Source: Escherichia coli (lineage in GTDB: Bacteria; Pseudomonadota; Gammaproteobacteria; Enterobacterales; Enterobacteriaceae). Taken from it: a DNA stretch of 64,000 nt. A model generated the notes under the pieces. It saw nothing but the letters and a program-made list of their open reading frames with translations. It did no database searches and was not told the DNA's origin. The translations under genes and the position numbers were made by a program. Each line of letters opens with the position of its first letter. Position 1 is the stretch's first letter. Below, piece after piece: positions 27,096-34,536 of the stretch. The stretch lies in the NCBI RefSeq assembly GCF_003790525.1, contig NZ_CP033635.1, one strand, 5' to 3'.

Positions 27096-28265
27096 TCAGG
27101 CGGTTTCTCTTGCTGTCACTACGCCATTTTGCGCAGCCCACAGATTCACATCTTCCTTACGAATGGCGGCGGCCATCATGCCGGGGAATAAATCTGGGGT
27201 ACAGGCAAAGGAGGGAATACCCATGGCGGCGAGTTTTCCTGCCAGTGACCGGTCGTAAAACGGCGCACCTTCATCGCTTAAGGCCAGCAGGGTAACCACC
27301 TGTACGCCGGACTGAATCAACTCACTGGCGCGTTGCAACAGATTGCGTTCCACCCCGCCTTCGTAGAGGTCGGAAATCAGCACCAGAATGGTATTGCGCG
27401 GATCGCGAATCAAAGACTGGCAGTAGCCCACCGCGCGGTTGATGTCGGTGCCGCCACCCAGCTGTACGCCAAACAGCAGCTCTACCGGATCGTCGAGCTT
27501 CTCTGTCATATCAACGACTGCGGTGTCGAAAACCACCAGATGCGTTTTTACCGCCGGGAGCGATGCCATTACTGCGCCAAAAATACTGGAATAGACCACC
27601 GAGGAGGCCATCGACCCACTCTGGTCGATACATAAAATGATCTCCTTTTGCGTGCGTTGAGACTTGCGCCCGTAGCCGATCAGCGTTTCAGGAACAATAC
27701 TTTTATACTCTTCCTGCCAGTGGCGCAGGTTGGCGCGAATGGTGCGCTGCCAGTCAATTTCCGCGTGGCGCGGGCGACGATTACGTACCGCACGATTAAG
27801 AGCGCCGCTTACCGCGCTACGCATTGGCTCTTCAAGCTGTTTCATCAATTGCTCGACAACTTTACGCACCACAAGCCTGGCGGTTTCTTTGGTTTTGGCC
27901 GGAATTACGCCATTCAGCGACATCAGCGTGGAGACCAGATGAACATCAGGCTGGACGTTTGCCAGCATCTCCGGCTCCAGCAACATACTGTGCAAATTAA
28001 GACGTTCAAAGGCGTCTTTTTGCATCACCTGAACCACAGAAGAAGGGAAATACTGGCGAATATCACCCAGCCAGCGAGCGACTTTGGGTGACGATCCACC
28101 CGTGCCGCCGCGTAATCCATGTTTACCCTCTGGCTGATACAGCGCCGCCAGCGCGGCATCAATCGCGGACTCTCTGGCATCCAGCGCCACGTTACAGGCA
28201 TTGTCGGCATCTTCTCCAAGGATCAGACGCCAGCGGCGCAGCCGTTCCATTTCGTTACTCGACAT
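27096..28265 (-). CDS. von Willebrand factor A (VWA) domain protein with complete MIDAS motif (389 aa); fifth gene of novel operon
   Basis: DQSGSM (DxSxS), GGGTD and LISDLYEGG motifs seen in the translation; start overlaps the upstream gene's stop by 11 nt. Confidence 0.85.
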   Translation of the reverse strand: MSSNEMERLRRWRLILGEDADNACNVALDARESAIDAALAALYQPEGKHGLRGGTGGSSPKVARWLGDIRQYFPSSVVQVMQKDAFERLNLHSMLLEPEMLANVQPDVHLVSTLMSLNGVIPAKTKETARLVVRKVVEQLMKQLEEPMRSAVSGALNRAVRNRRPRHAEIDWQRTIRANLRHWQEEYKSIVPETLIGYGRKSQRTQKEIILCIDQSGSMASSVVYSSIFGAVMASLPAVKTHLVVFDTAVVDMTEKLDDPVELLFGVQLGGGTDINRAVGYCQSLIRDPRNTILVLISDLYEGGVERNLLQRASELIQSGVQVVTLLALSDEGAPFYDRSLAGKLAAMGIPSFACTPDLFPGMMAAAIRKEDVNLWAAQNGVVTARETA

Positions 28266-30504
28266 GATTTTCCCTTTCGTGTGGTGGCAAAGCCAGAATG
28301 CGGCGCAGTAGCGGCAGCATTAACGCGGCACGCTGTTCATCCCATATACCGCTGGTCTCTTCTTGCTGCGCGACACGCTCGCCCTGCGCGGCGCGTTCGC
28401 CTAACTGGCGGCGTTCCGGGCTGGAAAAACGGCCGAATGTCCGCCGCAGCATCGGCAGGATCCGGGTGAAGTGATTGTCGTTCAGGCCGCTTAGCCAGGC
28501 ATCGATCAACTGCCATAATTCGCTATTGTGCAGTAGCACCATCGCGCTGTCGTTGAGGAAACCTTCCGCCCATGCGGCACTTTCCGCCGGGGGATTGGCT
28601 GGCGATAGCGCCAGGTTCATCAGCGTGCTGATCCGTTCTGTCGTTAACGTTTGCAGATCAAACAACAGGCGCGTCGCCGTTCCGCGAAGCAGCGCGTGTG
28701 CGGTACTGCCCTCTGCCAGCACCATCAACGCCTGCAACCAGCCCGCCAATAGATCTTCGTTATCCAGCAACCGCAGCGCGGCGTGGGCGTCGATAACTTT
28801 TTCTCTCATACTGGCGGCGCTGTCGTCGTTGAGCGCCGAACAGGCTCCGGGTAGGGCGATGGCGGCGCGCGGGGCGAGGCTCATCAGTACCTGCATTACC
28901 ATACCAGAGTCGGTCTGGCGCACGTTGCCGTAGCGGACAATCGCCACCAGTGGTGCCAGGGCTTCCAGCAACTGTTCGATATTGCCCTGAGTGGCAGCCA
29001 GTGATTCCAGTGTATTGGCGATGGGGGCAATCGCGGTCTGTAAATCGGCCAGTAGCACCTGTTGGATAAGCTTTGCCAGTTCCGGCAGCGTGCTGGCGTA
29101 TTGCGCCCTCACAATGGCATAGCGGGAGCTGGCCTGCTCAATGCTGTTACCCCAACGGCTGGCGGTAATGATGTTGATTGCCAGTGCCGGTTCCCAGCGC
29201 AGCGACCAGACTTCGTGGAACGTCCCTTTGCTGTTATTTCCTTGTCCAGCCAGACGGCCCCAGGAAATGTCGAGTAAGGTCAGGCGATGCAGTAAATGGC
29301 TACGCGCCAGATCGCCGGGTTTGCGCAGATCAAGATCCAGCACTTTTTCGCTGGCTTCTGCCTTCAGGCGCAGCGTTTTTTGCTGTTGCGTAATGTCGCG
29401 TTGGAGCGGCACGACGGGCGTATCATCCGGTACGCTTCCCAGCGCGTCGCCGACAATTAACTTCTGGCGAATCATCTGCATTGGCGCGCTTTCGCCCATA
29501 CACACTACGGTTTGCAGCGCTTCGCAAAGTTCGTCAAGCCCCGGCTGCGGGTGATGGCGCATAATCGCCAGCGTCTGCGCCAGCCGCGCCGCTTCGATAA
29601 TGTGGGCGCTGGAACAGTCGAGATCGGCTTCGCGAAACAGCCTTGCCGCGCGTGACAGCCAGCCGATATCGCGGTGAGAAGCGCCCTGATAACGCCACAG
29701 ATGATCGTACCATTCCGGTGACACCACCCCTGCGCCATAACCGCTGGCGCGGCTTAACGCCTCGTAGCTCCAGGGCGTCCAGGCTGCCGCGACCTTGCAC
29801 TTCGGCAAATTTTTCAGCAGTTCGTTATCATTCTTTGCGGGCGGCAGGTTTTCCAGCGCCGGAACGTGCCACGCACCGCAGACTACCGCGATGCGCGAGA
29901 AGCCCTCTTTTTTCGCCTGACGTAGCGTCTTGCGCATATACGCTTCACGCAGTTGATCTCTGGCTGAGTTTCGGGCTTCGGGAGTTGCCTGGCGTAGGGC
30001 AATCATCGCCTCGCGAATCGCCTCGAACAGAGACAAATCATCTTCGCGTTCCTCTACTCTGTGGCTCCACCAGCTTTCCCCATCGGTGTAACCGGCGGCG
30101 CGGCCCAGCCAGTCCAGCGGATCGCCGTCGGGACTGGCTTCAACGGCATCATCGTCATCGCTCTCTTTTTCGTCATCAAGCGCGAACTGATGACTGATGG
30201 GCAAGTCCATAAAGCGCACGGCGATATTTTGCTCAAAACCATAGCGCAGCGCCTGCCATTCCGGGGAGAACGCCGCAAAGGGGTAAAACGCGGCGTGATG
30301 TGAGTCGTCCGGGGCATAAATCAGTAGCGCGACCGGCGGTTGCATCTGTTCATGCTGCATAAAAGGCAGGATGGATTCGCCGTCGGGCGGCCCTTCCACC
30401 AGCAGGCAGTCGGGCTGTAGCGTCTCCAGCGCCTTTCGCAGGCTGCGCGCGCAGCCAGGGCCATGGTGACGGATGCCAAACAAATGAACGGTTTGTTCAG
30501 TCAT
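28255..30504 (-). CDS. Large hypothetical protein (749 aa), no motif recognised; fourth gene of novel operon
   Basis: Uninterrupted 2.25-kb ORF; AAGG RBS in the 17-nt gap after the AAA+ gene; acidic stretch DDEKESDDDDAVEASPDGD; helical Leu/Ala-rich C-terminal half. Confidence 0.8.
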   Translation of the reverse strand: MTEQTVHLFGIRHHGPGCARSLRKALETLQPDCLLVEGPPDGESILPFMQHEQMQPPVALLIYAPDDSHHAAFYPFAAFSPEWQALRYGFEQNIAVRFMDLPISHQFALDDEKESDDDDAVEASPDGDPLDWLGRAAGYTDGESWWSHRVEEREDDLSLFEAIREAMIALRQATPEARNSARDQLREAYMRKTLRQAKKEGFSRIAVVCGAWHVPALENLPPAKNDNELLKNLPKCKVAAAWTPWSYEALSRASGYGAGVVSPEWYDHLWRYQGASHRDIGWLSRAARLFREADLDCSSAHIIEAARLAQTLAIMRHHPQPGLDELCEALQTVVCMGESAPMQMIRQKLIVGDALGSVPDDTPVVPLQRDITQQQKTLRLKAEASEKVLDLDLRKPGDLARSHLLHRLTLLDISWGRLAGQGNNSKGTFHEVWSLRWEPALAINIITASRWGNSIEQASSRYAIVRAQYASTLPELAKLIQQVLLADLQTAIAPIANTLESLAATQGNIEQLLEALAPLVAIVRYGNVRQTDSGMVMQVLMSLAPRAAIALPGACSALNDDSAASMREKVIDAHAALRLLDNEDLLAGWLQALMVLAEGSTAHALLRGTATRLLFDLQTLTTERISTLMNLALSPANPPAESAAWAEGFLNDSAMVLLHNSELWQLIDAWLSGLNDNHFTRILPMLRRTFGRFSSPERRQLGERAAQGERVAQQEETSGIWDEQRAALMLPLLRRILALPPHERENHVE

Positions 30505-30521: not shown

Positions 30522-31616
30522 TTACACAATTTCGCGGCAGGCGCGATAGAGATCGTTCCAGTCGCTGCGCTCTTTGACTATAGTTTCCAGATATTCACGC
30601 CATACCACGTCGTCCTGCACGGGATCTTTTACCACCGCGCCGATAAGGCTTGCGGCGATATCCCGCGGATGTAGCACGCCGTCGCCAAAATGGCCCGCCA
30701 GCGCCATACCGTTGTTGATAACGGAGATCGCCTCCGCGGTGCTGAGAGTACTGGTTGGCGACTTAATTTTCGTTTTGCCGTCAACCGTCAGGCCGTTTCG
30801 CAGTTCGCGGAAGATTTGCACGACTCGCTGGATCTCTTTAAGCGCTGGCGGTTCGGCAGGAAGTGCCAGCGCCTGACCCAGTTCGGCGACGCGGCGAGTG
30901 ACAATGTTAATCTCTTCTTCTTCGCTGGCGGGTACGGGCAAAATGACCGTGTTGAAACGACGTTTAAGTGCGGAAGAAAGCTCGTTAACGCCTTTATCCC
31001 GGTTGTTGGCGGTGGCGATAACGTTAAAGCCGCGCGTCGCCTGGACCTCTTCATTCAGTTCGGGGATAGGCAGCGTTTTTTCCGACAGGATCGTGATCAG
31101 CGTGTCCTGAACATCGGCAGGAATACGCGTCAGCTCTTCTACGCGGGCAATCTGCCCGCGTGCCATCGCCCGCATCAATGGGCTTTCTACCAGCGCCGAA
31201 CGTGACGGACCTTTAGAGAGCAACTCCGCGTAGTTCCAGCCATAACGCATTTGTTCTTCACCGGTGCCTGCGGTGCCCTGAATAATTAACGTTGAGTCGC
31301 CGCTGATGGCAGCCGCCAGATGTTCAGAGACCCAGGATTTCGCAGTGCCGGGTACGCCATACAACAGCAGTGCGCGATCGGTTGCCAGCGTGGCAACGGC
31401 GGTTTCGATAATCCGCCTGTTGCCGATATATTTCGGCGTGACCTCAAAACCATTTTCCAGTTGCCCGCCTAACAGATAAGTAGCAACGGACCACGGAGAA
31501 ATAGCCCAGTTTTCCGGGCGCGGATGAGTATCGTTTTTTTGCAGCTCATCCAGTTCTTCTGCAAATTGTTGTTCGGCATGTCGGCGTAAAACGGCGGCAG
31601 TAGCGGTGGAAGTCAT
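30522..31616 (-). CDS. MoxR-like AAA+ ATPase (364 aa from ATG 31616); third gene of novel operon
   Basis: Walker A LLLYGVPGTAKS (GxPGxAKS, MoxR-type), Walker B-like IARVEELTRIPADVQ, sensor-1 NVIATANN, Arg finger LKRRF; ATG overlaps the upstream stop as ATGA. Confidence 0.85.
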   Translation of the reverse strand: MTSTATAAVLRRHAEQQFAEELDELQKNDTHPRPENWAISPWSVATYLLGGQLENGFEVTPKYIGNRRIIETAVATLATDRALLLYGVPGTAKSWVSEHLAAAISGDSTLIIQGTAGTGEEQMRYGWNYAELLSKGPSRSALVESPLMRAMARGQIARVEELTRIPADVQDTLITILSEKTLPIPELNEEVQATRGFNVIATANNRDKGVNELSSALKRRFNTVILPVPASEEEEINIVTRRVAELGQALALPAEPPALKEIQRVVQIFRELRNGLTVDGKTKIKSPTSTLSTAEAISVINNGMALAGHFGDGVLHPRDIAASLIGAVVKDPVQDDVVWREYLETIVKERSDWNDLYRACREIV

Positions 31617-33217
31617 AAAGTAGTTTCTCCGACAAAAAACGAATGAAGTTGAATTCGGTGCGCCAGCGTGGCGCTCAGGGCAGTAAAGGCTGCCTCGCAA
31701 TAAGGCGTTTGTTGTGCGTCATGCGGCCACTTGTCAATGACATCATTGAGGACTTCGGGGGCCAGCAGGCAGGCGAAATCACTCATCACATGGCGCAGGG
31801 CGTAGTCAAAGCGCGCGGAATCATGTTTCACCCAACGGTGCAGCTCCGTGACCATTTGCTGGCTCAGGCGCAGGCTAAAGAGCGACGCATCCAGCGGTAA
31901 CAGGGCGATGTAGCGTTGTAAATGTTCGCCGCCCATTACCGAGAACAGTAACGTCAACACTGGCTCGTGTTCTTCTACGGGCAGGCATTGCAGAAGCTCA
32001 AAGGCGTTAATCTTCACGCCAGCAGGGGAATGAATGCTTATTCCGACGGGGAGTAGGGCGAGGAATGCCTGCGCCCACTGTGGATTTTTTTCGCGCAGGA
32101 CGGCGTGATACCAGGCGCGCAGTAGCGCCTCCTGCCAGTCGGTTTTCCCGGCCCAGCGCAGCAGTTCAACGGGGGTAGCCTGCAGTTGCGTTTGCCACCA
32201 GTCGAGCGGAACCGCTGCAACTATCTGATACAGCCACCATGCGCGCTGGCCCAACTTTTCGCCTTTGGGCTTAGTTTCTTCCAGCGCATCGGCCTTCCAC
32301 TCTGGTAAGAACGCCTCCGGGGCATCAAGGGCGACGCGCAGCATTTTTTCTTTGCCGGATAAGCCTTTTAGCCTTTCAAGTAAGGTCTCAGGAGCGGGGG
32401 ATGAACTGAGCAACGGCGCTAACCGAGACTTCATGCGCGAGATCCAGGCGCTTTCCGGCAGACAACACAGTAACCGTGCCGCAGTTTGCCGCACCTCTTT
32501 GCTGCGATCGGATAATGTCTGTTCCAGAAAGGCTTCGTCGTGTTGGGAGATCCCCACTTCCAGCACAGCCAGCAGCTGTGCGCGTTCGCGGGCATCCAGC
32601 GAACTCATCTCCTGCGCCAGCCGATCGCGACCCTGTTCCGGGGCGCGAATGCGCATTTGCGTCAGATATTGCAGACGCTGTTCGGACGTGCCGTGCAGCC
32701 ACATTTCTTCATCCAGCGGAGCGTCAGTGGAGGCGAGAACATAGCCCCAATCGGCGTTGATTTGCGCCAGCCAGCACCCGCGAGCGCCCAGAACATTGGA
32801 CAGGATGCCGCGTAGAGATGGCTTTTGCGCTCCATAATTCAGCAATGCTGGTAACAGCAGGGGCGGAGGAAGAAGTTGACGACGGACCAATAGATCAAGC
32901 GCCGACCACAGCAACCGCGGCGGTCCTTCTGACAGCAGCAGATGCAGCAGTCCCGCAAAAGCCGGGTTGTTTATTGGCTCGGCATTTTCTTTATCGATTT
33001 CCGGCAGCGGTGCGGGGTCAATCGCCTGCGGCACCCAGCCAGCCAGATGGCAGAGCGCCAGAACGCCCGCCGAGCGCAGTAGCTGTTGCTCTGCGGATGT
33101 GTTATTCGCCAGTTCAGACAGTAACAGCCCAATCTCACTTTGCGACGCCGACGGTGTAAACGCTTTTTTGTCTGTGCCGAGTAGCGCTGTGCGGGTTAAA
33201 TTTTGCCATTCGTTCAT
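31613..33217 (-). CDS. Hypothetical alpha-helical Leu-rich protein (534 aa from ATG 33217; 541 aa if 33238); second gene of novel operon
   Basis: Long ORF; ATG at 33217 forms an ATGA overlap with the SWIM gene stop; Leu/Ala/Trp-rich repeat-like sequence; no catalytic motif recognised. Confidence 0.8.
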   Translation of the reverse strand: MNEWQNLTRTALLGTDKKAFTPSASQSEIGLLLSELANNTSAEQQLLRSAGVLALCHLAGWVPQAIDPAPLPEIDKENAEPINNPAFAGLLHLLLSEGPPRLLWSALDLLVRRQLLPPPLLLPALLNYGAQKPSLRGILSNVLGARGCWLAQINADWGYVLASTDAPLDEEMWLHGTSEQRLQYLTQMRIRAPEQGRDRLAQEMSSLDARERAQLLAVLEVGISQHDEAFLEQTLSDRSKEVRQTAARLLCCLPESAWISRMKSRLAPLLSSSPAPETLLERLKGLSGKEKMLRVALDAPEAFLPEWKADALEETKPKGEKLGQRAWWLYQIVAAVPLDWWQTQLQATPVELLRWAGKTDWQEALLRAWYHAVLREKNPQWAQAFLALLPVGISIHSPAGVKINAFELLQCLPVEEHEPVLTLLFSVMGGEHLQRYIALLPLDASLFSLRLSQQMVTELHRWVKHDSARFDYALRHVMSDFACLLAPEVLNDVIDKWPHDAQQTPYCEAAFTALSATLAHRIQLHSFFVGETTL

Positions 33218-34536
33218 TGTGCGCCTCCGGTTGCCCAAATGACGCTACCGGCAAGCCAGGCGCTACAGGGCGTCAGCTGCTGACCATCCCATTCCCCCAT
33301 TAGCATAAACGGCGCGCCGCCGCTGGCCGCCAGTAACCGCCAACCCTCGTCCGACGACAGGTGCGTCGGTAAGTGCTGGCCCTGTGTCGAGACGAATCGC
33401 CAGCCGCTCTCGTGCGGGTAAATCAATATTTCGCTTACTCGCAGCGGCAGAGGCCATTGCCAGGGATTCGCGCTAAGCCGCTGCGCCATGTCATGCAGCG
33501 CGTCCGGGAGGGGTAATTCTGCAAGCGGGAATCTTTCACCGCGGGTAAACGGCTCCACAACCCGCGCCCGTAGCGGTGATGCGCCAGGGAAAAAGGCAAG
33601 CGCGCCCTGGCAGACTTGCCCGGTGATAAAGTGCTGGGGAAAGTTTTTACTACCGTGTGAATAGTCCAGCAGTAGCGCGGTGCGGTGGCTCTTTTCTCCG
33701 TACAGCCAGACCCGGCGTCGCCACAGATTATTCCCTTCTTGCGCGCTTTGACCTAAGACCTGCCAGTTATCGAGGCAGGTTAATCCGTCAGTGACGTCGT
33801 GTTTATCCGGGGGTATTCCCAATGCCGCATGGAGATCGCTAAGTTGTGCCGGGGATAACATTTGTTGCTGGCGCCAGGCGTCAATAATCAGCTGTAGCTG
33901 CCCCAGTTCTTTGCACAGGCTCGATGGCCATACCTCGGCGGTAGTAAAATGAGTGGTCAGATTGTTCAGGCGAGCGGCAATTCCCGGTAGTTGGGCGTCG
34001 ACCATGCGGGCGGCGATCCCGGCAAAAGGCAACTGTTGTGCAGAGATCTGCGCCAGACCGTGGCGGATCAGGTCGTGCATCCACTGTTCGAGGAAATCCA
34101 GCCCCGCCGTCATTTTTTGGTTGCGTGCCGCTTCCCGTTTGGCGGCAGCCTGCGGGTCGGCAGCTTTTGCCTCAGCCTGCTCTTTCTTCTCTTCTTTGCG
34201 AACCGCCCGCTGCTGGCGCGAGGTTAGCCACTCGCTTACCCATTCCGGCGGCTCGCCAGCGGTGAAACTTGCGGTGTGTTGCACCTGGAGAAAAAGCAAC
34301 GCAAGGCTATGTTTACAGGGGAATTTACGGCTGGGGCAGGAACATTTACAGGCCAGATCCTGTCTGTCGATTCGTACCTGATAAGGGCGGGAGCCGCTAC
34401 CTTTACACTCTCCCCAGAAGGCAGCCTCGCTATATCCGAGCGTCGGCCATTTTGCGGGAGCAACCAGGCCACGAGCCGCTTTAACCGAGGCGTCATCGGG
34501 CGCCAGGGCTTGCACTGATTCAACGGTCAGTTCCAT
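33214..34536 (-). CDS. SWIM zinc-finger domain protein (440 aa); first gene of novel operon
   Basis: CxCxnCxH signature at residues 63-76 (ACKCSCPSRKFPCKHSLALLF); first ORF downstream of gltD on the same strand. Confidence 0.85.
   Translation of the reverse strand: MELTVESVQALAPDDASVKAARGLVAPAKWPTLGYSEAAFWGECKGSGSRPYQVRIDRQDLACKCSCPSRKFPCKHSLALLFLQVQHTASFTAGEPPEWVSEWLTSRQQRAVRKEEKKEQAEAKAADPQAAAKREAARNQKMTAGLDFLEQWMHDLIRHGLAQISAQQLPFAGIAARMVDAQLPGIAARLNNLTTHFTTAEVWPSSLCKELGQLQLIIDAWRQQQMLSPAQLSDLHAALGIPPDKHDVTDGLTCLDNWQVLGQSAQEGNNLWRRRVWLYGEKSHRTALLLDYSHGSKNFPQHFITGQVCQGALAFFPGASPLRARVVEPFTRGERFPLAELPLPDALHDMAQRLSANPWQWPLPLRVSEILIYPHESGWRFVSTQGQHLPTHLSSDEGWRLLAASGGAPFMLMGEWDGQQLTPCSAWLAGSVIWATGGAQ

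Follow-up and report, generated by a model that had tools for sequence, protein, structure and literature searches.

A five-gene cassette with a DUF5682 protein

The window, a stretch of 64,000 nucleotides of Escherichia coli DNA (contig NZ_CP033635.1), harbours a cassette of five genes on the minus strand, listed here from the first to the last:

33214–34536, minus strand: SWIM zinc-finger protein, 440 aa (Pfam SWIM, residues 59–81, E=2.4e-6)
31613–33217, minus strand: DUF5691 helical protein, 534 aa from the RefSeq start (Pfam PF18944, E=1.2e-122)
30522–31616, minus strand: YehL-type MoxR AAA+ ATPase, 364 aa from the RefSeq start (Pfam AAA_5, E=1.8e-38)
28255–30504, minus strand: DUF5682/YehM-family protein, ATG start, 749 aa (open reading frame list and Pfam)
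27096–28265, minus strand: CoxE-type VWA protein, 389 aa (Pfam VWA_CoxE, E=3.6e-52)

The 749-aa product is identical to WP_000139765.1 of E. coli SMS-3-5, which RefSeq names 'DUF5682 family protein'. It had been described from its sequence as lacking recognisable motifs, a description that does not hold: the Pfam model DUF5682 (PF18934) matches it from end to end (E=2.4e-268, model positions 1–727 of 727, query residues 22–737), and the His/Gly-rich N-terminus that was quoted, FGIRHHGPGCARSL at residues 9–22, contains the most conserved motif of the family. This motif, GIRHHGPG, lies outside the Pfam model, as the latter begins only at residue 22. A database search retrieved homologues in at least 8000 clusters at 90% identity, with 4447 representatives at 50% identity, and the reading frame is therefore a real gene and not a chance one. 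The protein is a genuine, widely conserved member of the DUF5682/YehM family, which is uncharacterised. No matching family was found in NCBIfam or PADLOC, and PHROGs yielded only the unnamed family phrog_30700. Sequence searches of solved structures, performed with the single sequence and with a 60-sequence profile, returned noise only. DUF5682 and DUF5691 are mentioned in no paper found in a literature search, and a search on yehL/M/P/Q and DUF4132 retrieved no functional work.

The DUF5682 gene is the biggest of the cassette, as the sequence-only reading had it, and is flanked by the AAA_5 gene (30522–31616) on one side and by the VWA_CoxE gene (27096–28265) on the other; the sequence shows that the start of the VWA gene overlaps its stop by 11 nt. 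GltB, encoded upstream of the cassette, exceeds the DUF5682 protein in size and is set apart by gltD and a 232-bp spacer. The features that define the MoxR/YehL subfamily (Walker A and B motifs, sensor 1 and an arginine finger, together with a complete MIDAS in the VWA partner) are all present in the flanking pair. The P-loop GxPGTAKS, the Walker B motif R[VI]EELTR, N204 and R219/R220 are invariant across 61 orthologues of the ATPase; in the VWA protein the MIDAS residues D214, S216, S218 and D299 are invariant and T273 is retained in 56 of 58 orthologues.

This composition is maintained well beyond E. coli. Of 80 loci sampled from other species across many phyla, 59 are collinear for SWIM-DUF5691-AAA-DUF5682-VWA, and the same middle position is occupied by the DUF5682 protein in the K-12 yehL-yehM-yehP array, so that the likeness to the large middle component of MoxR-VWA clusters noted earlier is borne out. 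A SWIM protein gene is found in 63 of the 80 loci, always in first position, and a DUF5691 gene lies 5' of the ATPase gene in 65. Clustering of 1105 open reading frames from the 80 loci disclosed no sixth conserved gene or client. The clusters that came next consisted of antisense reading frames in GC-rich DNA and a generic ABC ATPase. The cassette is self-contained, and DUF5682 is the fourth of its five subunit genes. As it travels without a fixed neighbour, it is unlikely to be a chaperone dedicated to a client enzyme encoded next to it.

A rare paralogue of the yeh locus

The near-universal yehLMPQ locus of E. coli has in this cassette a second paralogue, which is rare. The DUF5682 protein shares 27% identity with K-12 YehM (b2120) over 564 residues (E=6e-42); the figure is 41% for the ATPase and YehL, and 38% for the VWA protein and YehP. 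The two loci have in common the order ATPase-DUF5682-VWA and the presence of a SWIM protein, and YehM, which RefSeq also calls a DUF5682 protein, retains every invariant residue of the N-terminal domain as well as an acidic loop at the same position. They differ in their periphery: yeh has DUF4132 proteins (YehI, YehH) and a WGR protein (YehF) upstream and the 614-aa SWIM protein YehQ downstream, whereas the cassette carries its 440-aa SWIM protein and DUF5691 upstream, and the alignment of YehQ with this SWIM protein is limited to the CxC...CxH motif. E. coli K-12 possesses only two MoxR ATPases, and YehL is without known function or partner chemistry (PMC3893208).

The distribution of the two paralogues is very unequal: of 5426 complete E. 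coli genomes, 33 carry the cassette, at the same chromosomal site in each, whereas 5332 have yehM. In SMS-3-5 the cassette takes the place that gltF-yhcADEF has on the K-12 map, downstream of gltD. A functional link with gltBD was considered and rejected, given this simple replacement and the different neighbours found in other loci. A phage origin was likewise rejected: among 50,697 phage records there is a single match, to an unverified scaffold from faeces.

The sporadic occurrence in E. coli at a single site, combined with variable neighbourhoods, invites a reading of the cassette as a mobile module of immunity, with the MoxR-VWA pair as a threshold switch, as in the MoxR-vWA ternary systems, and DUF5682 as a protease-type effector that infection would release. 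Several observations are consistent with this scenario. Among plasmid loci, one (L009) lies beside a type I restriction-modification system and another (L008) beside toxin-antitoxin and immunity genes; strong matches to defence models flank the cassette in three of eight loci (30 flanking reading frames scanned), a small sample without a baseline; one of the three (L076) is bordered by a PDC-S37/Hhe-like protein and a DrmC-like nuclease. K-12 yehL-yehM is silenced by H-NS, in the manner of foreign DNA. The MoxR-vWA ternary conflict systems described by Kaur et al. 2020 (PMC7159879) also consist of a MoxR-vWA core and a conserved third component, bear a CoxE-type N-terminal region on the vWA protein and include two MoxR clades with the P-loop variant GxxxTAKS found here; in addition, the cassette ATPase gives a weak match to the Pfam bpMoxR model (E=3e-4). 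However, the architecture of the cassette is not described in that survey, which makes no mention of SWIM, YehL or TraB (PMC7159879). The third component is DUF5682 rather than VMAP, iSTAND, FtsH or a β-propeller, for which no Pfam or PADLOC matches were obtained, and the vWA protein lacks fused variable effector domains. A hypervariable effector is absent, all five components being constant in 59 of 80 loci, and PADLOC-DB 2.0 contains no match for DUF5682, VWA, SWIM or DUF5691, while the match of the ATPase, to IetA, is trivial (E ~1e-3 over 30 residues). Moreover, the paralogue yehLMPQ comes close to being a core locus (5332 of 5426 genomes), in contrast to typical defence islands, and the only 'phage' occurrence is the unverified scaffold. 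A conflict or anti-phage function is regarded as unlikely.

Predicted architecture and a candidate site

An AlphaFold2 model of the 749-aa protein (pLDDT 90.4, pTM 0.85) confidently predicts a three-part organization, with an N-terminal α/β domain, a central helical/β region and a C-terminal α-solenoid. The parts and the motifs of the N-terminal domain are as follows:

29689–30504, minus strand: N-terminal α/β domain, residues 1–272, predicted TIKI/TraB/ChaN/Ere fold
30454–30477, minus strand: GIRHHGPG, residues 10–17, directly after β1; candidate catalytic or metal-binding His pair
30121–30198, minus strand: variable, acidic, disordered loop, residues 103–128, an insertion in the N-terminal domain (pLDDT, homologues)
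29866–29877, minus strand: GAWH, residues 210–213, after the strand 204–210; second candidate catalytic His (alignments, model)
29188–29688, minus strand: central helical region with a small β unit, residues 273–439 (DSSP)
28258–29187, minus strand: C-terminal α-solenoid, residues 440–749, with a conserved LPxLRRTF at 683–690

The best structural matches of the N-terminal domain (residues 1–272) are TraB, ChaN, HopBA1, Ere-type esterases, RRSP and PMT, and the α/β core with a parallel sheet that is common to solved TIKI/TraB/ChaN/Ere members is present in the predicted domain. The TIKI/TraB/PrgY/GumN/ChaN/erythromycin-esterase superfamily best matches this core. The resemblance extends to the placement of motifs: a G-x-x-H after strand 1, a Glu after strand 2 and a G-A-x-H after a late core strand, a layout whose equivalents in the E. 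coli TraB/GumN protein YbaP are GSIH41, E67 and GALH252. The DUF5682 domain differs in that it has no signal peptide or membrane anchor, is followed by ∼480 extra residues, flanks its motif with an additional invariant His (H14) and Arg (R12) and is encoded inside a MoxR-VWA operon, a context found in no paper; the literature search also retrieved no paper tying MoxR to TraB or Tiki. Sequence profiles did not detect the relationship. The Pfam models TraB_PrgY_gumN, Cofac_haem_bdg and Erythro_esteras gave no match at E<=10 to the query or to the N-terminal domains of 29 homologues, searched one by one. An hhalign comparison of the DUF5682 and YbaP alignments returned a local probability of 0.3% and a null global result; this is a weak test because the YbaP profile is narrow (Neff 2.0), its homologues all being at least 65% identical. 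The fold and the positions of the motifs suggest that the first 270 residues or so constitute a TIKI/TraB-type α/β domain. Strong homology to a characterised enzyme family, which would have spoken against the sequence-only reading, was not found, as the TraB/TIKI link comes only from predicted structure and motif placement.

In two alignments, YehM included, G10, R12, H13 and H14 are invariant; G15 and G17 are invariant in the first and at least 90% conserved in the second. In the GAWH motif G210 and H213 are invariant and A211 is at least 90% conserved. Altogether 13 charged or polar residues are invariant: R12, H13, H14, E37, S80, E82, D100, E151, R171, R186, E187, H213 and Y256. In the model R12-H13-H14 follow β1 (residues 5–11 by DSSP), E37 follows β2, D100 the strand 95–98 and H213 the strand 204–210. 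H13/H14, E37 and H213, together with E82, E151 and E187, are predicted after or near core strands and are candidates for a 2His/2Glu catalytic site. The sequence R12-H13-H14-G15 after β1 could also be read as the 'RHG' motif of a histidine-phosphatase-like enzyme, in which H213 would be the other catalytic His of a phosphatase or mutase; fold scores demoted this interpretation, which is highly improbable.

The acidic segment recognised earlier, DDEKESDDDDAVEASPDGD at residues 109–127, falls within the loop at 103–128. This is a low-confidence loop in the model (pLDDT <50 at residues 117–125), with a D+E fraction of 0.24 compared with 0.13 for the whole protein. Across homologues its sequence is variable and its length ranges from 16 to 83 residues, and yet it is net negative in 55 of 60.

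The central region comprises helical segments at 278–377 and 396–410 and strands at 387–392, 416–418 and 430–435 (DSSP), with D392, R394, S402, E431, W433 and W437 invariant in the alignment. The C-terminal half is Leu/Ala-rich and helical, in agreement with the earlier description: Leu and Ala account for 31.6% of residues 440–749 as against 21.7% of residues 1–272, and the prediction is all-helical. Its structural matches, among them symplekin, HUWE1 and separase, are of scaffold type.

More than half of the DUF5682 protein is predicted solenoid, and the top structural match of the N-terminal domain comes from Tetrahymena, whose respiratory complex IV contains a TraB protein as a structural subunit. 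Non-catalytic members of the superfamily are known, PMT being one (PMC6254334). These observations would suit a pure scaffold, a platform for the AAA+ ring, VWA, DUF5691 and SWIM proteins without chemistry of its own, whose TraB-like domain had degenerated like that of the Tetrahymena subunit. On the other hand, 13 invariant charged or polar residues kept between paralogues just 27% identical overall would be unexpected of a platform, and four of them are placed directly after core β-strands, the usual active-site edge of such folds. A scaffold devoid of activity is judged improbable. The description 'scaffold or effector' remains a fair one because the C-terminal 300 residues form an α-solenoid matching symplekin and HEAT-type scaffolds; the protein need not be a featureless scaffold, its N-terminal domain being a predicted TraB/TIKI fold. 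As a whole, the earlier interpretation is partly supported.

A possible ATP-controlled enzyme

The predicted TraB/TIKI fold and the invariant His/Glu site suggest that the DUF5682 protein may be the working enzyme of the cassette. There is about an even chance that it combines a TIKI-type hydrolase or metal site with a fused scaffold, under the control of a YehL-type MoxR ATPase and a VWA protein. In TIKI, RRSP and Ere enzymes a 2His/2Glu site lies at the C-terminal edge of the parallel sheet. At the corresponding edge of the DUF5682 domain, R12-H13-H14, E37, D100, H213, S80, E82, E151, R171, R186 and E187 would together make up a site for hydrolysis or metal binding. If the cassette works as other MoxR-VWA pairs do, its VWA protein would dock through its MIDAS, possibly onto the acidic loop, and recruit the AAA+ hexamer, which with ATP might either remodel and activate the TIKI-like domain or load metal into it. 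Cohesion of the complex and delivery of the substrate might fall to the α-solenoid, DUF5691 and the SWIM protein.

The comparison with other MoxR-VWA pairs also evokes a different role. In common with CoxD/CoxE, NorQ/NorD, CbbQ/CbbO and CobS/CobT-CobN, the cassette couples an AAA_5 ATPase and a VWA_CoxE protein with an intact MIDAS to a large third protein encoded between them, and DUF5682 could be the large subunit that serves as substrate in a chelatase-like or metal-insertion machine, in the way that CobN does for CobS/CobT or that CoxD/CoxE and NorQ/NorD have their clients, with the His/Glu/Asp cluster binding a metal or a tetrapyrrole as ChaN binds haem. Unlike these systems, the cassette has no linked client enzyme gene, its ATPase has EE instead of DE in Walker B and Ala for the usual Gly in the P-loop, and DUF5682 is dissimilar to both CobN and ChlH. 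In the 80 loci, no gene for biosynthesis or for a metalloenzyme is a recurrent neighbour of the cassette. A metal or cofactor client is quite unlikely, and in part it overlaps the hydrolase-or-metal-site reading, where a metal site is allowed.

A bolder form of the hydrolase proposal is that DUF5682/YehM proteins are ATP-gated TIKI-type hydrolases, in which a YehL-class MoxR ring and a MIDAS-bearing VWA adaptor grip the acidic loop and activate a solenoid-borne His/Glu protease or esterase, with SWIM and DUF5691 as sensor or adaptor. This is put forward tentatively, as a possible but rather unlikely scheme in its entirety. Were it true, AAA+-controlled enzymes would gain a new class, found in hundreds of bacterial species and, in the form of yehLMPQ, in almost every E. 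coli, which might represent a conflict or stress-response system. The analysis as a whole predicts, besides a hydrolase-type site, that the acidic loop is a candidate MIDAS ligand and that the five-protein composition is fixed, with no linked client. If it is confirmed, the proteins driven by MoxR-VWA machines would come to include a TIKI/TraB-fold enzyme, and near-core E. coli genes left without a function for decades would receive one. Should the candidate site prove inert, the DUF5682 protein would instead be the conserved scaffold of an uncharacterised chaperone. The named candidate residues H13, H14, E37 and H213 offer a testable handle on a family of at least 4400 sequence clusters.

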